Shown here in pieces: positions 4,530-53,376 of a stretch of DNA of 64,000 nucleotides. This DNA comes from Escherichia phage A73: sequence record OP778609. One strand, 5' to 3'. A program made the position numbers and the translations under genes. The notes below the pieces were generated by a model. That model had not been told where the DNA came from, ran no database searches, and saw nothing but the letters and a program-made list of their open reading frames with translations. Positions within the stretch are counted from its first letter, which is position 1. Each line of letters begins with the position of its first letter.

Positions 4530-4558
4530 TTGACGTTCGCCAGGTGAGCGGGTATATT
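4530..4558 (+). promoter_or_regulatory. sigma70-like promoter (TTGACG-17-TATATT) with conserved leader hairpin
   Basis: -35 at 4530-4535, -10 at 4553-4558; leader ACGTAGGGCGGCAATAGTGCCGC at 4565-4587. Confidence 0.55.
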
Positions 4559-4607
4559 TTATCACGTAGGGCGGCAATAGTGCCGCTCACTGACTGGAGC
4601 TATCATT

Positions 4608-5009
4608 ATGGCCTTTACAATCACCTCTTACACTGACGTTGCCAACATTGCTAAAACTTTCGGCCCTGAAGCCCTTAAGTATGCGGTATCCAATGGTAAA
4701 CTAACGAAAGAGCAATGTTACCTGATTGGAAGCTGTAAACGTTGGGCGGCATCTCGTAACATCGAGATTGAAAACGTAAATGATGGTAACATCGAGTATA
4801 GCGTTGATGCAGTATTCAAGGCCGTGTATTTGGGCGGTATCTACAATACCAATCTTAATGATGTTCGTATCGTTCGCACTGGTTTTGGGGCTTATGATGT
4901 TCCAGTCCGCGAAGCTATGGAAAAAGGTTATATTAATCCAGCTATTTTAAGTATGATCATGACTGAGGCCAAAGAACGTAACGAAGTACGGGCCATCCTG
5001 GGCCTGTAA
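4608..5009 (+). CDS. hypothetical protein (133 aa)
   Basis: ATG after TGGAG RBS. Confidence 0.55.
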   Translation: MAFTITSYTDVANIAKTFGPEALKYAVSNGKLTKEQCYLIGSCKRWAASRNIEIENVNDGNIEYSVDAVFKAVYLGGIYNTNLNDVRIVRTGFGAYDVPVREAMEKGYINPAILSMIMTEAKERNEVRAILGL

Positions 5010-5891: not shown

Positions 5892-6029
5892 CTATTCTTA
5901 TCAAACGGGCGGCACCTGGGAACAGGGGGAGGTAATCACTGGACGACTCCGCTATACAGTGATAGTAAATAGCTATCAATAATCTCCAAAAATAAAATAA
6001 AACCTATCGAGTCTTTACAATTCTTTCTG

Positions 6030-6058
6030 TTGACACAACAACCGCATTACAGTATTAT
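6030..6058 (+). promoter_or_regulatory. sigma70-like promoter (TTGACA-17-TATTAT)
   Basis: -35 at 6030-6035, -10 at 6053-6058, then CTCGTAGGGC leader motif. Confidence 0.55.
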
Positions 6059-6061
6059 TTA

Positions 6062-6330
6062 TCTCGTAGGGCAGCGAAGCAGTGATGTAAAGTAGTTACT
6101 CTATGATGTAAGTTCTGAGAAGTCGAATCCGATAAAGTATCAGAAAGTTTCTAAGTTTTCGAATCGTCCAGATGAAAAAGGCTGGCAAGTGTTGAGAAAG
6201 GGCACGTTGAGTAAGTCCTGAACAGGGGCGCTCCTAGACACCTTCTACTGAGATTGCGATCGAAGTGTTAAACTGTGAGAAACAAAAGAGCGCTAGGAAA
6301 GAAAGAAACAAGAAAAGAAGTTAAAAAGAT
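6062..6330 (+). ncRNA. candidate untranslated transcript / sRNA
   Basis: About 270 nt downstream of a strong promoter with no ORF longer than 7 codons; the next promoter (6333) serves the gene at 6407. Confidence 0.2.
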
Positions 6331-6332
6331 TG

Positions 6333-6362
6333 TTGACACAAAAGTAAGTTGTATACTATTAT
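6333..6362 (+). promoter_or_regulatory. sigma70-like promoter (TTGACA-18-TATTAT)
   Basis: -35 at 6333-6338; CTCGTAGGGC leader follows. Confidence 0.45.
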
Positions 6363-6406
6363 ATCTCTCGTAGGGCAAACATTCAAAACATCAAAAAGGG
6401 TACAAA

Positions 6407-6682
6407 ATGTTACAACTTAACGCTAAATTAGACAAAGAAATCACTGAATTTTGGGATATGGTAGTAGCTACTGATGTGGACGGTGTAGCAAGTCCTTACC
6501 TCAATAACATCGAGTATCACAATGTTGCCGCTATCAATGCAGAACACAAAGAGAAAGGCGGTGCTGATAAATTTGCTAAAAGCAATGGCTTCACTGATGC
6601 TAATCACATGATGCAATCAGTATTGTGGCAAGCTCAAGAAGATTTCGAAGAAAAAACTCTTGAATTTGCCAGACGCTCATAA
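6407..6682 (+). CDS. hypothetical protein (91 aa)
   Basis: ATG after AAAGGG; followed by hairpin GGGCCGAAAGGCCC at 6697-6710. Confidence 0.55.
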   Translation: MLQLNAKLDKEITEFWDMVVATDVDGVASPYLNNIEYHNVAAINAEHKEKGGADKFAKSNGFTDANHMMQSVLWQAQEDFEEKTLEFARRS

Positions 6683-46193: not shown

Positions 46194-46737
46194 TTAAGTA
46201 GGCATCTGCAAGATCTGTAGACCCGCCGTTCTTACCCGTCTTTGAATATCCAGCTAAAAACCCAGGTTCCATCAACTCGCAAACCTTCATCATTTGATCT
46301 TTATCCATTTTAATTTTTTCCATCTTCGTACCTTTTGCATTCATCACTTCTTGTTCTTCACCAGGTAACTTACCTCGTGCCCAAGATTTAACGGATGTTG
46401 GTGCAATTGTGTGTATGTTGTCCATACTATACCCATCTCGAAGCAGTGTCAACTGAATACAGAAAAATAATCCTGCAAGATCCCTTGTCGCATTACCAGC
46501 AGAGCCGAAACTCAAAGACTCCAATACGATCTTCTCAACCTTAAAAGATTCACAAATATCTGCAATGTGTCTAGAGATGTATGCCATCTGCTCGACAGGG
46601 TTGTCAAATCGAATCTGCCAGTCCTTGGCATTTGCAGATCCAGTGGTTTTTAATACCTCTTTAAAGATCGGTTCATTACCGTCAAAAACTACACATGCAC
46701 AAGAAGCCATACTCTGATCGATGGATAAAATTTTCAC
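46159..46737 (-). CDS. RuvC-like / RNase H-fold nuclease (192 aa)
   Basis: MKILSIDQSMASCACVV...VLESLSFGS...TDLADAYLIG follows the RuvC-like pattern. Confidence 0.45.
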   Translation of the reverse strand: MKILSIDQSMASCACVVFDGNEPIFKEVLKTTGSANAKDWQIRFDNPVEQMAYISRHIADICESFKVEKIVLESLSFGSAGNATRDLAGLFFCIQLTLLRDGYSMDNIHTIAPTSVKSWARGKLPGEEQEVMNAKGTKMEKIKMDKDQMMKVCELMEPGFLAGYSKTGKNGGSTDLADAYLIGRCYLERNGY

Positions 46738-47045
46738 GCTGATTCCCCTTCTTCGGTATTATCAAGATAATGATACTGGTCGATTAAGAACACATAGTTC
46801 TTTACTTCTCCGTCCATGTAAACCATAAAAGTTACATATTTCTCATCATAGAACGGATCACCAACAACATAGATCTGGCAGATAGAATCAACACGTTTGT
46901 CAAACCACTGGATTCGCCAAGGCTCCTCAAGCATAGTCCAAGGTTCTTCAATCTTGTAGACCTGGCGCTTTGCGCCAGGAACGAGTGCTGCACGAATTTC
47001 GTCAGCGATCATAACATCATCAAAACTCTCAGAAAAACCCGACAT
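46734..47045 (-). CDS. hypothetical protein (103 aa)
   Basis: ORF. Confidence 0.5.
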   Translation of the reverse strand: MSGFSESFDDVMIADEIRAALVPGAKRQVYKIEEPWTMLEEPWRIQWFDKRVDSICQIYVVGDPFYDEKYVTFMVYMDGEVKNYVFLIDQYHYLDNTEEGESA

Positions 47046-48154
47046 TAAATACCTACCCGTTTTAAAGTTGAGGCTAATGTTGTCTTATCATTTTCTGTAC
47101 GCTTCATATAAACACACTGGAAAATGACAGAAGCCCACTGACCCGCCGAAAACTTACGATGATTACCTAAATGATCTGTGTATTCAACACCATCAGGAAA
47201 CCACTTCTTATATTGATCAATAATAGCCAACCACATACTCTTCTCGTCTGCACAAGGGGAGATGACCTGGAAAGCCGATGTTTCACCAAAGCGAAGACCC
47301 TCGAAGGTTTGATATGGTTTAACGTTATCCGCTGCATCACCAAATAGCATTTGGTAACCGAAGAATTTCTTACCCCAACCTTTTACCTTACCAGACTCCA
47401 TCCAGATCTCACCCATAGAATCATCGATCAACCAAAGTTCAGGATGTTTCCATGTACGCTCTGTTGAGTCACGCATTGTGTTAAACAACAAAGAAGGAAC
47501 CTGAACCTGATCCTTATCGAATGATGCCACAATATGACTAAACTTTCCAGTCTTCCGATAATTTAAATATCCTTTATATCCAAGGATCGATAAATAATCA
47601 TCTGCCTCAATACCATCCACAATGATCGCACCATACTTCTGCTGAACATATCGACGAGTCTCCCCAAGCAACAGAGGACGTAAAGTATCTTCACGGTTAC
47701 CCTTATAGATCTCAGGGGTCGGGAGTGCAAGACGGAAGTTACCACTCCCACCTAAAACACCAAGCCCGTTTGCTGATCCTACGTGTTCAAGAATAGCATT
47801 GATCTTAATCTTCAATAAGTGAAGACAGTTCTCCACTGGTTCTGGAGTTTGCTTTTCAATGATCTCGAAATCATCACGGGTCCACGGAGTAAATTCTTTT
47901 CCGCGAGCAACCGCTTTTGCTTCCATATTAATGTTTTGGTCTTTTAACCATCCACCAACAACATTCTTTTGGCGACCCCAGAATTCTGTTCGATTTTTAA
48001 ACTCTTTCTCTCGGCCTGTTTCTTTGTGCCGAGCAATGATCGTTCGCTTCTCTGCACCTGCCGCAGCCACGTATGCTGTCTGGTCCAGATCCAATGCCAC
48101 GACAACATTATCTTCGACAATACCTGACCAATCTTTAATTACCGGATAACCCAT
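47045..48154 (-). CDS. 5'-3' exonuclease / flap endonuclease (FEN family, T5 D15-like)
   Basis: GIEADD, FDKD and GDAADNV motifs typical of 5' nucleases. Confidence 0.75.
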   Translation of the reverse strand: MGYPVIKDWSGIVEDNVVVALDLDQTAYVAAAGAEKRTIIARHKETGREKEFKNRTEFWGRQKNVVGGWLKDQNINMEAKAVARGKEFTPWTRDDFEIIEKQTPEPVENCLHLLKIKINAILEHVGSANGLGVLGGSGNFRLALPTPEIYKGNREDTLRPLLLGETRRYVQQKYGAIIVDGIEADDYLSILGYKGYLNYRKTGKFSHIVASFDKDQVQVPSLLFNTMRDSTERTWKHPELWLIDDSMGEIWMESGKVKGWGKKFFGYQMLFGDAADNVKPYQTFEGLRFGETSAFQVISPCADEKSMWLAIIDQYKKWFPDGVEYTDHLGNHRKFSAGQWASVIFQCVYMKRTENDKTTLASTLKRVGI

Positions 48155-48168
48155 GAAATCTCCCCTTA

Positions 48169-48687
48169 TTAAAATGCTTCGCCGTAATCTTCGTCTTCTT
48201 TAACTTCTTTTACTGGTCGCTTAAATTTGAAATCTTGACCCATGTATTCATACAGATAATCAATATTCAAAGACCATTCTTGCTTACTTCTTTGTCGCCA
48301 TAAACTAAATTCTTCTTTCAAATAATCAATCGCCTGATCACGAGTGATGTTGTTAACCTTCATGAATTGACGAATTGCCCTTTCAAGGTGTCCATTCTTT
48401 TGTGCTAACCCAGGATGCATGAATTCATGACAAGGTGGGCAAAGACACATAAGGCCGACAAGTTTAACCTCTCCATTTTCAAAAGTCCACTCTTCATGAC
48501 ATTCTACCGCATGTTTTCTTCCATTACCTCCCTGACCGTTACATATCTGACAATGCCAGTTGTGCTCTGCATAACTTTTCTTGCGGATCTTATCCCATTG
48601 GGACTGAGTAAGATATGAACGTAAATTGTTATTCCATGCTGTCTGTGGGATTATGCAAATTTTATGTTTTATATCTACCATTTTCAT
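48169..48687 (-). CDS. putative zinc-binding HNH-like nuclease (172 aa)
   Basis: C..C...H...CHE...C..CH...H pattern. Confidence 0.4.
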   Translation of the reverse strand: MKMVDIKHKICIIPQTAWNNNLRSYLTQSQWDKIRKKSYAEHNWHCQICNGQGGNGRKHAVECHEEWTFENGEVKLVGLMCLCPPCHEFMHPGLAQKNGHLERAIRQFMKVNNITRDQAIDYLKEEFSLWRQRSKQEWSLNIDYLYEYMGQDFKFKRPVKEVKEDEDYGEAF

Positions 48688-49193
48688 TTTCCTCTAAAGT
48701 TGCCTTCCAGTTCAGGGTATTTTTCATTTTTTAGATCGAGGTAAGCTTGTTTTGCTTCCTCTTCTGTTTTGCAATACTTCACGTACTCTCGACCACCCCT
48801 GTTAAGTCTTGCTTGCCAGCAATTACTCTTTTTATGCCAACGATAACCTTTACTCAGTGACCTGTTTACGTTGTTTGCAGATCTATCGACTTCTCGCAGA
48901 TTCCAACCTGCATTATTTTGTCTATTCCCGTCTATGTGATCAATATCTCCAAGAGGCCAATACCCATTAAGAATGAAAAACACAACTCTATGCGCCCTAT
49001 AAGTTTTGTCATTAAGATTCCCGTAAAAATAATTACGATCTCCTTTCTTACATGTTGTGAAGGCGGGATCTCCTATCTCAGACCTTATTCTCTTTATCTT
49101 CCAACGAAGACCTGTATAACTTGACTCATCAACCCCCAGCGATAACTTTATATTTTCAAGTTCCTCCTCGGTTGGGACTCTAACTTTTGTCAT
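48684..49193 (-). CDS. HNH homing endonuclease (169 aa)
   Basis: AHRVVF...DHIDGNRQNN...NLR; paralog at 52876-53376. Confidence 0.75.
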   Translation of the reverse strand: MTKVRVPTEEELENIKLSLGVDESSYTGLRWKIKRIRSEIGDPAFTTCKKGDRNYFYGNLNDKTYRAHRVVFFILNGYWPLGDIDHIDGNRQNNAGWNLREVDRSANNVNRSLSKGYRWHKKSNCWQARLNRGGREYVKYCKTEEEAKQAYLDLKNEKYPELEGNFRGK

Positions 49194-49745
49194 TTAATAT
49201 GCCTCACATTTACCAATCATATTCATAGCTTCAGAAACATCGATAATCATATCGGTTGCTTCGTCCCAAGCTTTCCCCAAGAGATTCTCACCATACCAGA
49301 AACTTTCATCATCTACCATAGGGTGATTCTCATCCATACCGATCCCCCATATACGATCTCTCGGAGAAGCCTCTACAAACTTTAAACCCTTTTTACGGTA
49401 ACCTACCGCAAGTTCACGGAGATTACCATTATCACACATACGACTATACACTAAACGGGTTACAATGTTAAATTTATTTTCATCCCAAACTGCCTGATCA
49501 AAATCCTTAACTTTACGACCTAGCCTTTTAGCACCTTGTGGAGTTACAGATTTAAGGATTCTTTCCGCTGAAGCTTTGTCACCGAAAAGCATAGCCTTTT
49601 CATACATCATGTAATGCTCACCTGTGTGGAAATAAACCCCTTTCATCTTCTGGTCGAAGTTTGAAAACGGAGAGATCTCCTGGTAATGATTACTAAAAAC
49701 ATCACGAAAAGAATAAAAGAACACATGTTTATCAGTGACTCGCAT
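49194..49745 (-). CDS. NADAR-domain (YbiA-like) protein (183 aa)
   Basis: FFYS...FSNF...TGEHYMMYEKA.LF.D...KRLGRKV.DFD...W...K...LR...EASP.DRIWGIG; start MRVTDK with AGGAG RBS. Confidence 0.6.
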   Translation of the reverse strand: MRVTDKHVFFYSFRDVFSNHYQEISPFSNFDQKMKGVYFHTGEHYMMYEKAMLFGDKASAERILKSVTPQGAKRLGRKVKDFDQAVWDENKFNIVTRLVYSRMCDNGNLRELAVGYRKKGLKFVEASPRDRIWGIGMDENHPMVDDESFWYGENLLGKAWDEATDMIIDVSEAMNMIGKCEAY

Positions 49746-49881
49746 AAAAACTCCTATAGATCTAATGCAGATATTGAAATCAAGAATAGCACTACCGAAA
49801 GTAATCCGTCCGGCGTACTGAAAAATCCAATCCAGCACGCTCTTGTGAACAGGTAGAATGCCAGTATTAAAACGATAACCC

Positions 49882-50118
49882 CTAAGAATGTTTCGATTTT
49901 TCTAACTCCCGAGCCATAATCTTCGTAATGTCAGCAAACGCAACATAAGCATGTTTGTAACAACCTACATCAACATTGAGAGACTTGATCTCCTCTTCTA
50001 ATGAATTTATTACATGAAGTGTTTGACGAATAAGATCAACATCCTTAGTCGTTACATTGGGCGAAGCTGTCATCAACTTAAGCCTTTCTTTAATCGTTTC
50101 GATATCTTGATTATACAT
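49882..50118 (-). CDS. hypothetical protein (78 aa)
   Basis: ORF. Confidence 0.45.
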   Translation of the reverse strand: MYNQDIETIKERLKLMTASPNVTTKDVDLIRQTLHVINSLEEEIKSLNVDVGCYKHAYVAFADITKIMARELEKSKHS

Positions 50119-50443
50119 TCACAATCTCCAGTAAAGATCCAGGAATTGAAACAGAACAGTTTTCTGCCATCGGGAATTTAGCAATCCAATCTGAAAGGCT
50201 GCAATAGGCAGACCAATCAAAGTCTTCGTCGAAAACGACAATATTATTAAATTCCACACCATCAAGATTAACAATCTTTTTAATAATCAGGTCTTCGATC
50301 TGACTTGCCTTAAAAAGACCACAGATTTTGGATGGCAAGTTAAGTCCCCACCGTTCACGAAATTCAGAATCTTCAAACTTGAAGAAACCAACTGCCTTTG
50401 CCAAGTCTGCTGCACGGACCTCTAAAATAACCAATTTACTCAT
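50111..50443 (-). CDS. hypothetical protein (110 aa)
   Basis: ORF. Confidence 0.5.
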   Translation of the reverse strand: MSKLVILEVRAADLAKAVGFFKFEDSEFRERWGLNLPSKICGLFKASQIEDLIIKKIVNLDGVEFNNIVVFDEDFDWSAYCSLSDWIAKFPMAENCSVSIPGSLLEIVNV

Positions 50444-50692
50444 TTAATTTTCTCCTCGATCTGTGTAGTGCTGTATAATCTCATTTAAACATTTACCTGT
50501 CAACGAAAATTTCTTAGCTACGTAGCATTCGAGAATATGCTCTTTCAAGTCTTCAGAGTCAGTGTATCCCATCTTCACAATGAAGTTGCGAATCTTAGCC
50601 TTATCTTTATCATTTAAAGAATTAAAATAATCACTTTTAGAATTAATTATCCTCATTTTCAAGTTTCCTGATCTGATAGTAAAGAGAGTCAA
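50444..50692 (-). CDS. hypothetical protein (82 aa)
   Basis: ORF. Confidence 0.45.
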   Translation of the reverse strand: MTLFTIRSGNLKMRIINSKSDYFNSLNDKDKAKIRNFIVKMGYTDSEDLKEHILECYVAKKFSLTGKCLNEIIQHYTDRGEN

Positions 50693-50915
50693 TGATCTCT
50701 TCGTTGGCCTTAATGTACATATCCCGTAAGAAAGGTTTCAACCCATCACGCAAAATATTTCCATCACAAGCATCGTTCAGGTATGGATGACCTAGAGCCT
50801 CCCAGGCAGGTTGATTGGTATAAGTGCCCCAGCCTTCATTCATCATCTGGTTAAGATACTCGATTTGTTTTATCTTAAGCTGCAAAGCTTCAATAGTAAG
50901 CTGTTTAATGTTCAT
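50643..50915 (-). CDS. hypothetical protein (90 aa)
   Basis: ORF. Confidence 0.45.
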   Translation of the reverse strand: MNIKQLTIEALQLKIKQIEYLNQMMNEGWGTYTNQPAWEALGHPYLNDACDGNILRDGLKPFLRDMYIKANEEIIDSLYYQIRKLENEDN

Positions 50916-51379
50916 CAGTAAAGGTCCTCCGAGTAAAGTTCTTTCTCACTTCCACCACGTTCGATACGTACCTGTCCGGCATAAGTTGCAATAACCATTG
51001 CTTCTTCACGAGTCCAGTAATTTGAATATTGATCAATAAAGCCTTGATCATCACCACAAACTTGTTGTGAAACTAATTGGGGACCAACCACATCAAGCAC
51101 TTCAGCCATATCTTTAGAGTAATGACGAGCACCAGGAATGACTATAGTTCCACCATCCTTCAATTTAAACCGATTAGCAGCACATACAATAGTACGTTGA
51201 ACTTTTTGATCATTATTCCAATGACATGTTTGCCAACAGATCTCAGGAATATCGTCCATCATATCTTCGAAAGAGTAATCAGCATTTCCGTATGACTGTA
51301 GTTTTTCAAACAAACTCTCTGGAGTTTCACGAGACAAAGCTTTATCCAATAATTCCAGACGTTCTTTAAAAGTTTTCAA
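50915..51379 (-). CDS. hypothetical protein (154 aa)
   Basis: ORF. Confidence 0.5.
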
Positions 51380-51383
51380 TTGA

Positions 51384-51572
51384 TCACCCCTCTGTAGTAG
51401 AATCTTGCTTGGTCATTTCACGAAGAATAAGTGCTCCAACATTTTCAAGAAGTGTTACGAGAGAGTCAACTTCAGGTAACTTAATACTCTTAGATTCTTT
51501 ACTCATCCCATCACGAACTGACGAAATTTGCATAAACACGGCGATCATTTCTTTTGTAAGCTTAATATTCAT
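51384..51572 (-). CDS. hypothetical protein (62 aa)
   Basis: ORF. Confidence 0.4.
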
Positions 51573-51647
51573 TTTATCCTCTTTAGTTAGTAGATGAATC
51601 GTTGATCATGGTTGTGGCCCAAGTTGAACAATCTGAAGTAATTTATA

Positions 51648-51869
51648 TCAATTTCTCTTGATGTGTTTACTAGGACAGGCTCCCGCACCGTCTTTATATA
51701 CCACAGCAGACGATCGACCGTTGCTATAAACGCATACAGTTTGGCTACCGTCGCGGTATGAATCTTCTAAGTCTAACGTCTGACTGGCGTGAGCCTCAGG
51801 GAAGTTTAGTACACTCGTAATTAGGCAACCAAGTGCAAAACCCATAATCAGTGCTCTATTTTTGCGCAT
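51648..51869 (-). CDS. small secreted protein with signal peptide (73 aa)
   Basis: N-terminal MRKNRALIMGFALGCLITSVLNFPEAHA with AxA cleavage site; two mature cysteines. Confidence 0.5.
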   Translation of the reverse strand: MRKNRALIMGFALGCLITSVLNFPEAHASQTLDLEDSYRDGSQTVCVYSNGRSSAVVYKDGAGACPSKHIKRN

Positions 51870-51942
51870 TATTTCATATCCTCTTCGTTGGTTGATATAA
51901 GGATTATACAGGATTGGTGGCAGGTGTCAATAGATAGATAAA

Positions 51943-51968
51943 GAAAAACCGCCCCGAAGGGCGGCTTA
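51943..51968 (-). terminator. rho-independent terminator (AAGCCGCCCTTCGGGGCGGTT + U-run)
   Basis: Recurring hairpin family. Confidence 0.65.
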
Positions 51969-51975
51969 AAAATTT

Positions 51976-52218
51976 TTACCAATTTGCGTAACCATCTTGT
52001 TCATCAGTGTCACGATCTACGATTCGTGGCTTTGGAGTTAGATCCATATGAGCAAGAGGCGTACCTTCTGGAATATCATTCAGTGAATATTCAACATTTA
52101 CCAGTTGACCTGTAAGCTCATCCATCTTTTGGGAGATATACGCTGCAACTGATCGACCTTCCAGAGTAGCCAGGTATTTCAGTTTTTCGTAAGTCGCGTC
52201 ATTAAAATTGATATTCAT
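51976..52218 (-). CDS. hypothetical protein (80 aa)
   Basis: ORF. Confidence 0.45.
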   Translation of the reverse strand: MNINFNDATYEKLKYLATLEGRSVAAYISQKMDELTGQLVNVEYSLNDIPEGTPLAHMDLTPKPRIVDRDTDEQDGYANW

Positions 52219-52280
52219 ATTTGTATCTCCTTTTTGTATTTTTCATTATAAGGGCCACACTAACGTGGCCCGATCGTTAC

Positions 52281-52502
52281 TTAAGCTACCAGTTCTAAAT
52301 CTTCAGCTTCTGCGTAGAAACCATCAACGATAACACCATCCTGACGTGTGAATGCAACAATAACATCTCCCCAATCTTCATCGACGAATTCAACAACGCC
52401 AATATCTCCAAATCGAACACCAGACAAACTGTAGCGGTCTTCATAATTACCTAACGGACTGAACTTAACTGTCTGACCTGGATTAACTTCTTTGATATTC
52501 AC
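52281..52502 (-). CDS. hypothetical protein (73 aa)
   Basis: ORF; hairpin GGGCCACGTTAGTGTGGCCC downstream. Confidence 0.45.
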   Translation of the reverse strand: MNIKEVNPGQTVKFSPLGNYEDRYSLSGVRFGDIGVVEFVDEDWGDVIVAFTRQDGVIVDGFYAEAEDLELVA

Positions 52503-52875: not shown

Positions 52876-53376
52876 TTATTTCCAATAAAATTTACCATTA
52901 AGATGAGGGTAGAGTTCAAGTTTCTTTTTCTCGTACCACTCCCTCGCTTCTTTTTCACTTAAGGTGTTTTTAGTATACACCCTAACTCCGCACTTTACAA
53001 CACTTCTCCAACAATTTTTCTCTGTACACCAAAAATAACCACGAGCTATTTTATTAGCACCGTTATCCAAATGATCAACCTCTCGGAGATTATCAGGATT
53101 GTTGTTACTTTTATCTCTGTCTATATGGTCTATTATACCACTAGGCCAATAGCCTCTGTCAAGAAAAAATACAACTCGGTGACAAAGATACGGCTTATTC
53201 AAAAATCTACCAGAGAAATACCCACTCTTTGTTACTGTGGTCATTGCTGGGTCACCAACCAAAGCCCTTGGCCCAGGTGATAACTTCCAACGAAGAAAAC
53301 TTATACTTGTGTCATCTACGAAAAGATAATCATTGATTGCATAAAGTTCCTTATCACTTGGGATGTATATTTTCAT
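52876..53376 (-). CDS. HNH homing endonuclease (166 aa)
   Basis: CHRVVF...IDHIDRDKSNN...NLR; paralog of 48684-49193. Confidence 0.75.
   Translation of the reverse strand: MKIYIPSDKELYAINDYLFVDDTSISFLRWKLSPGPRALVGDPAMTTVTKSGYFSGRFLNKPYLCHRVVFFLDRGYWPSGIIDHIDRDKSNNNPDNLREVDHLDNGANKIARGYFWCTEKNCWRSVVKCGVRVYTKNTLSEKEAREWYEKKKLELYPHLNGKFYWK

Follow-up and report, generated by a model that had tools for sequence, protein, structure and literature searches.

Introduction

Whether a small gene annotated as hypothetical in a large coliphage encodes an eraser of ADP-ribose marks on phage DNA is the question raised by one locus in the genome of Escherichia phage A73 (OP778609), of which a stretch of 64,000 nucleotides (the window, to which the coordinates below refer) was analyzed. 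The gene lies on the minus strand at 49194-49745, runs from ATG 49745 to TAA 49194 (552 nt) and encodes a NADAR-family protein of 183 amino acids, predicted to be an ADP-ribosyl N-glycohydrolase similar to the phage proteins named AdfN. In a megablast search, the surrounding region (47000-52000) is 100% identical to Escherichia phage W70 (OP778610.1; 137,323 bp; Vequintavirinae), after which the gene and its product are named here, and is otherwise common to only four phages, A5-4, A7_1, LTH01 and UPEC06, at 93-98% identity.

NADAR proteins hydrolyze guanine-linked ADP-ribose and serve as antitoxins of DarT1 (PMC11543638). Every NADAR tested so far, with all four families represented, removes ADP-ribose from guanine (G-ADPr) in vitro, and none removes it from thymidine, the base modified by DarT2. 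In phage T4, the protein gp30.3 (AdfN) strips ADP-ribose off phage DNA and thereby defeats DarTG1 (Johannesman et al., Nat Commun 2025, PMC11825919). The same study described two further, unrelated phage NADARs, AdfN-Bas32 and AdfN-Bas60, that neutralize DarT1 even in uninfected cells (AdfN-Bas60 with no other phage factors) and restore plaquing of RB69, T5 and Bas25 on DarTG1 hosts; phage AdfNs have no effect on DarTG2, and the three examined fail on the thymidine-ADPr produced by DarT2 (PMC11825919). We propose, with a probability of about 0.65, that the W70 protein is a stand-alone NADAR N-glycohydrolase of the AdfN type, which would erase DarT1-type guanine marks from phage DNA.

Family, fold and active site of the W70 protein

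The original prediction recognized in this open reading frame (ORF) the pattern of conserved motifs typical of YbiA and other NADARs, and each listed piece is indeed present in the 183-residue protein: FYS at residues 10-12, SNF at 28-30, EHY at 43-45, KAMLFGD at 50-56, LGR at 75-77 and EASPRDRIWGIG at 125-136. One piece, given as FD..W, occurs with a different spacing, the actual letters being FDQAVW, with three residues between Asp and Trp. Profile searches bear out the homology. The protein matches the Pfam family PF08719 (NADAR, formerly DUF1768) over profile positions 11-158 of 163 with an E-value of 4.1e-37 and 128.4 bits, compared with a gathering score of 35.1; it also matches PHROG 1017 (E 1.4e-46) and the PDB entry 8BAU (E 3.6e-13), so that, as judged from the sequence profiles, the similarity is far above chance.

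An AlphaFold2 model built with 30 homologues, with a predicted local distance difference test score (pLDDT) of 96 and a predicted template modeling score (pTM) of 0.90, has the architecture of the NADAR fold, a core of alpha helices with small beta sheets at its flanks, as in YbiA. A profile of W70-like proteins retrieves 8BAU, the NADAR of Phytophthora nicotianae (PnNADAR), with an E-value of 3.5e-36 (128 bits) and YbiA with 6.4e-17 (65 bits), and yields no match to DarG1 in the PDB. That the W70 protein belongs to the NADAR superfamily is confirmed by its profile matches, its predicted fold and its active-site residues.

The active site is intact. In PnNADAR, Schuller et al. reported that ADP-ribose is contacted by E43, K50, R79, W89, R93, E125, D130 and W133 (PMC11543638). 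Once the two-residue tag of the PDB chain is taken into account, their counterparts in the W70 protein are E43, K50, R77, W87, K91, E125, D130 and W133. Six of them (E43, K50, R77, W87, E125 and D130) are invariant in an alignment of 30 sequences (A1), and W133 is conserved in at least 90% of these; position 91 varies, with Lys in W70 and Arg in the consensus. The Ser/Glu/Lys set of the substrate channel (S69/E87/K94 in SCO5665; E43 and K50 in PnNADAR) is likewise present as S18, E43 and K50, all three invariant in a further alignment (A3), S18 being conserved in at least 90% of the sequences of A1. For the C-terminal half of T4 gp30.3, the alignment made by MAFFT in A3 is unreliable and was left out of the residue mapping.

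Glu43 (codon at 49617-49619, minus strand, as are all codons given here) corresponds to E36 of AdfN-T4, and the equivalent residue positions the distal ribose; Lys50 (49596-49598) corresponds to K43 of AdfN-T4, and its equivalent binds the diphosphate (PMC11543638). The Asp130-Trp133 segment, DRIW (49347-49358), retains both PnNADAR contacts, and its Trp is replaced by Tyr in AdfN-Bas60. Glu125 (49371-49373), which aligns with E125 of 8BAU, is the catalytic residue that defines subfamilies: Glu in the NADAR and YbiA types, Asp in DarG1 and His in AdfN of the T4 type (PMC11543638). By these residue assignments the W70 protein is of the Glu type, in the branch that resembles PnNADAR, and not of the Asp type of DarG1 or the His type of T4 AdfN.

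Start codon and coding constraint

GenBank annotates the gene as W70_174 ("hypothetical protein, COG3236") from GTG 49838, 31 codons earlier, which yields 214 amino acids; A5-4_183 is likewise annotated from a GTG 31 codons 5' of the ATG. We dropped this longer ORF as an over-extension, because a Shine-Dalgarno sequence, AGGAG (49751-49755, minus strand), lies 5 nt upstream of ATG 49745 and is conserved in UPEC06, LTH01 and A5-4; because most of the 120 homologues listed have about 150-190 residues, and phage homologues including AdfN-Bas60 align from residue 1 of the 183-residue form; because the 552-nt form is the one annotated in UPEC06 and LTH01; and because each of the four substitutions seen among relatives in the 31 putative extra codons is at a first codon position.

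The 136-nt spacer upstream of the gene (49746-49881, minus strand), 93 nt of which lie inside the GenBank coding sequence, is then most likely a non-coding leader. A scan of the spacer for consensus promoters and terminators gave no match, the regional counts of such elements not exceeding those in shuffled sequences, and its predicted RNA fold (z-score -0.67) does not indicate a structured RNA. The near-identity of the spacer among relatives was considered as a sign of constraint and dropped: a sliding comparison shows patchy, mosaic divergence across the whole region, which makes this near-identity uninformative. Within the 183 codons, third positions hold 26 of the 33 differences from UPEC06, and the ratio of nonsynonymous to synonymous substitution rates (dN/dS) relative to UPEC06 and LTH01 is 0.04-0.05. 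The gene is genuine and under purifying selection.

Relationship to characterized NADAR proteins

Among the experimentally characterized proteins, the closest is AdfN-Bas60 (bas60_0111 of phage PaulScherrer), identical at 39% of 170 aligned residues, from one end of the protein to the other (E 7e-32); PnNADAR is 30% and YbiA 24% identical to the W70 protein, and T4 gp30.3 gives no meaningful alignment by BLASTP (E 0.11). In a bootstrapped neighbor-joining tree of 66 sequences, with taxa picked by similarity to W70 and with deep nodes unresolved, the W70 protein groups with the NADARs of Certrevirus, Mydovirus and Seunavirus (Vequintavirinae) at a bootstrap value of 92. The sister of this clade is a group formed by Phapecoctavirus and the phi92/Bas60 phages (bootstrap 43/100), and then follow, at increasing distance, PnNADAR, YbiA and gp30.3.

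The W70 protein and AdfN-Bas60, which comes from the Justusliebigvirus phages Bas60-62, themselves phi92-like, have much in common. Both are stand-alone proteins of 183 amino acids without a DarG1-type extension at the N terminus, both are of the Glu type and carry the same Glu-Lys-Arg-Glu-Asp set of active-site residues, the same Pfam, PHROG and TIGR models recognize both, and both are encoded by large myoviruses that infect E. coli and belong to related subfamilies. They differ at 61% of positions, including Trp133 of W70, which is Tyr in Bas60, and His20, which is Trp; Bas60 has a 7-residue insert after helix 3. The loci do not share synteny: the W70 gene lies upstream of a 5'-3' exonuclease gene, whereas the Bas60 gene follows that of a 467-residue protein in another region. 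Orthology of the two proteins seems likely; the NADARs of Flavobacteriia, at 40-47% identity to the W70 protein, are as similar to it as Bas60.

Other characterized members are further removed. PnNADAR, which represents the NADAR family sensu stricto, differs in being eukaryotic and in carrying 17 inserted residues ahead of the last helix. E. coli YbiA (2B3W) has neither the 17-residue loop 136-152 nor the long helix at the C terminus, and did not protect from DarT1 in vivo. AdfN-T4 belongs to the same superfamily and would share the proposed job, that of an orphan phage eraser of DarT1 guanine marks, but it consists of the core domain only, has His at the position of Glu125 and requires a T-even factor for full activity (PMC11825919). 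Assignment of the W70 protein to the T4 type was ruled out by Glu125 in place of His and by the lack of BLASTP similarity to gp30.3; the W70-type and T4-type proteins are independent acquisitions. With DarG1 (E. coli C7; G. lovleyi, 8BAT) the W70 protein shares the fold and, by prediction, the guanine-ADPr hydrolase chemistry and an enzymatic mode of action, as in type IV antitoxins, with no binding of the toxin. It is nevertheless not an antitoxin of DarG1 type, since it has Glu125 (VEASPRD) rather than Asp, lacks the N-terminal beta-beta-alpha extension with its basic groove for single-stranded DNA, and is not encoded in a darT1 operon. As judged from the annotation and from Pfam scans of the neighbors, the W70 NADAR is a phage-encoded orphan with no adjacent DarT toxin, its neighbors being HNH, exonuclease and small hypothetical genes.

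Proposed function

Under the proposed function, the NADAR protein would be expressed alongside the phage genes for replication and nucleotide metabolism and would bind ADP-ribosylated guanine in phage DNA. Glu43 and Glu125 would hold and activate the distal ribose, with the diphosphate and ribose held by Lys50, Arg77, Trp87, Lys91, Asp130 and Trp133, and the N-glycosidic bond that joins the distal ribose to the base (guanine-N2-ribose) would be cut. Marks of the DarT1 type, set by the abortive-infection system DarTG1, would thus be erased and phage replication could proceed. The original prediction had named DarTG-like systems in general as the adversary. Homology to the 39% identical AdfN-Bas60 speaks for this proposal as far as DarTG1 is concerned, and the part that would include DarT2 is implausible, because all NADARs tested, the three phage AdfNs among them, fail on thymidine-ADPr; guanine modification of the DarT1 type appears to be the only plausible DarT target. 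The general idea of phage NADARs as anti-DarT factors is already published knowledge, as AdfN-Bas60 has been shown to neutralize DarT1.

Several observations weigh against this function. Identity of 39% to AdfN-Bas60 leaves room for another specificity, and the sisterhood with the Bas60 clade has a bootstrap value of only 43% in a neighbor-joining tree with similarity-chosen taxa. At position 20, W70 has His, whereas an aromatic side chain, which could stack on the base, is found there in most relatives; at position 91 it has Lys for Arg. E. coli YbiA and T4 gp30.3 did not rescue uninfected cells from DarT1 toxicity, so activity on G-ADPr in vitro is no guarantee of protection in vivo. Phage W70 was isolated on MG1655, and plaquing data on a host carrying DarTG1 were not found. 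Finally, the protein passes the NCBIfam model TIGR02464, "riboflavin biosynthesis intermediates N-glycosidase", at 128.1 bits relative to a cutoff of 73.7.

The competing explanation that survives best is that of an eraser of broader or different nucleic-acid specificity, which would act on ADP-ribosylated cytosine (C-ADPr) in addition to G-ADPr, and on both RNA and DNA, activities found in Glu-type NADARs, with an ADP-ribosyltransferase (ART) other than DarT1 as its main adversary, for example a pierisin/ScARP-like, YarT-like or undiscovered defense ART. The Asp type of DarG1 and the His type of T4 remove G-ADPr only (PMC12945103), and W70 is of the Glu type; guanosine-ADPr on RNA is also reversed by all tested NADARs (PMC11833690); and the profile of W70-like proteins scores PnNADAR far above YbiA and fails to retrieve DarG1. 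However, no cytosine-targeting ART defense system is known in E. coli, and AdfN-Bas60, which is also of the Glu type, is sufficient against DarTG1, so that a broader activity may be an addition to the anti-DarT1 function rather than an alternative to it. Sequence predictors of C-ADPr activity are also weak, because the W53S substitution in SCO5665 left its specificity unchanged. We judge this explanation unlikely. Somewhat less improbable, though still doubtful, is a wider role in which an eraser of both G and C marks on DNA and RNA, with a Glu-type active site as in the NADAR family sensu stricto and active with no other phage factors, would shield Certrevirus, Mydovirus, Seunavirus and W70-like phages from several ADP-ribosylating defenses beyond DarTG1, some of them undiscovered.

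A role as a scavenger of small ADP-ribose-derived molecules or immune signals was proposed as the predominant one for phage NADARs by Iyer, Burroughs, Anantharaman and Aravind (2022, PMC9503650), who reported NADAR in 27% of myoviruses, with co-occurrence of Macro, SLOG and Nudix domains. This proposal predates the biochemical work, and every phage NADAR tested since then acts on DNA adducts; cleavage of a cyclic ADP-ribose signal is not known for any NADAR, and a Pfam scan of the 17 ORFs neighboring the W70 gene detected no ART, Macro, SLOG, Sir2 or Nudix domain. We regard this explanation as very improbable for the W70 protein.

Slightly weaker still is a YbiA-like housekeeping role, that of an N-glycosidase destroying reactive intermediates of the riboflavin pathway (the function attached to COG3236) during infection, for which the TIGR02464 score, the Glu at the YbiA-defining position and the labels of relatives ("YbiA-like N-glycosidase", "GTP cyclohydrolase II", "swarming motility protein") could be cited, but AdfN-Bas60 also passes TIGR02464 (109.4 bits) and yet is an anti-DarT1 factor, the identity to YbiA is lower than that to PnNADAR, which also has the stronger profile and structure scores, riboflavin genes were not found nearby, and Johannesman et al. 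place the large group of phage NADARs outside the YbiA branch (PMC11825919). Because the validated AdfN-Bas60 passes it, TIGR02464 does not discriminate between these functions, and naming phage NADARs automatically by the function of this model is unsafe.

Genomic neighborhood and mobility

The NADAR gene is part of a long minus-strand block of genes for replication, recombination and nucleotide metabolism, which includes those for ribonucleotide reductase, thymidylate synthase, an NT5C nucleotidase, a DNA polymerase exonuclease subunit, endonuclease VII, a 5'-3' exonuclease and DNA ligase. Immediately downstream, at 48684-49193 on the minus strand, lies the HNH homing endonuclease gene that the original prediction had noted; it is free-standing (Pfam HNH_3, E 2.2e-11) and inserted exactly at the TAA/ATG junction after NADAR. 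It is followed by a conserved resident gene for an HNH-like zinc-finger protein (48169-48687, minus strand; phrog_5200, E 3e-70), with 66% protein identity to UPEC06 and 51% to BIS47, and then by the conserved anchor of the locus, the gene for the 5'-3' exonuclease (47045-48154, minus strand; FEN/RNase H-like, phrog_107, E 7e-66), whose orthologues are 68% identical in Mydovirus and 54% in Vequintavirus.

The same prediction took the HNH neighbor as a hint of mobility, which the comparison with related phages contradicts. The order of NADAR, one or more HNH genes and the 5'-3' exonuclease is found in the Klebsiella Mydovirus BIS47 (one HNH gene, in the junction at 4555-4992 of the extracted locus L010), in the Pectobacterium Certrevirus DU_PP_I (three, in the junction at 3542-5047 of L012) and in all W70-like phages (one or two), so that the position of NADAR is conserved in three lineages of Vequintavirinae. 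The HNH_3 gene, on the other hand, occurs in W70 only, with no close DNA match elsewhere among 50,697 phage records, and is missing at the site adjoining NADAR in UPEC06, LTH01 and A5-4. A mobile NADAR cassette was rejected because of the conserved gene order, and recent capture of the gene from the host because a search of 5,426 complete genomes of E. coli gave no nucleotide match. The pattern of the HNH_3 gene is the usual one of a free-standing homing endonuclease invading an intergenic hot spot and is silent on the mobility of NADAR.

Further features of the region concern the HNH genes and the surrounding mosaic. Across genera of Vequintavirinae, the NADAR-exonuclease junction is a hot spot of HNH genes. 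A paralogue of the HNH_3 gene (44% protein identity) lies 3.7 kb away at 52876-53376 on the minus strand. In A5-4, the NADAR gene differs from that of W70 by one synonymous base, and the phrog_5200 gene is flanked on its opposite side by a different HNH_3 gene. In the gene downstream of the HNH_3 insertion, the 5' two-thirds are diverged and the 3' end is near-identical to UPEC06, a pattern that looks like a co-conversion tract. In the rV5-like Vequintavirus FFH2, NADAR is not at this locus, which holds an HNH gene and two small "transposase-like" genes instead.

Divergence among W70-like phages (46500-52500 compared with loci L006, L007 and L008) is strongly patchy, with 0-1 or 10-40 differences in adjacent 100-nt windows, which indicates frequent recombination and mosaicism. 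UPEC06 and LTH01 do not have the gene at 51648-51869. Three small genes at 50444-51379 (minus strand) are homologous to arn.2, arn.3 and arn.4 of T4 (y16B/C/D, "arn-motA intergenic region") and show about 78% nucleotide identity to T-even phages of the Mosigvirus group, HX01 and S143_2 among them, which suggests the exchange of a cassette between Tevenvirinae and W70-like Vequintavirinae. Their GenBank label, "anti-restriction nuclease", appears to have been carried over from the neighboring arn gene.

Distribution and implications

Homologues of the W70 NADAR were found in 717 phage records. Stand-alone homologues, 38-44% identical to the W70 protein, are also carried by conjugative plasmids and by megaplasmids from Burkholderia, Pseudomonas and Vibrio: pBcn842-1 of Burkholderia cenocepacia (6001-6486 of locus L016) has one, as do 92 other plasmid records; the one neighborhood inspected was uninformative. 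These plasmid NADARs might serve as anti-ADP-ribosylation factors.

The concept of NADAR-mediated counter-defense, its mechanism and the phenotype of a homologue have been published, and the W70 gene opens no new question in this respect. What is added here is a member from a clade of Vequintavirinae, listed as hypothetical in GenBank, together with its probable AdfN-like function. If this assignment is true, it would provide a function for a gene that, both in W70 and in the hundreds of phages with homologues, is labeled "hypothetical" or mislabeled (also as "riboflavin intermediates N-glycosidase"), and counter-defense by AdfN would reach from Justusliebigvirus to a second, well-supported clade within the Vequintavirinae. 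The presence of the gene would also predict which coliphages that are candidates for therapy are likely to resist DarTG1.
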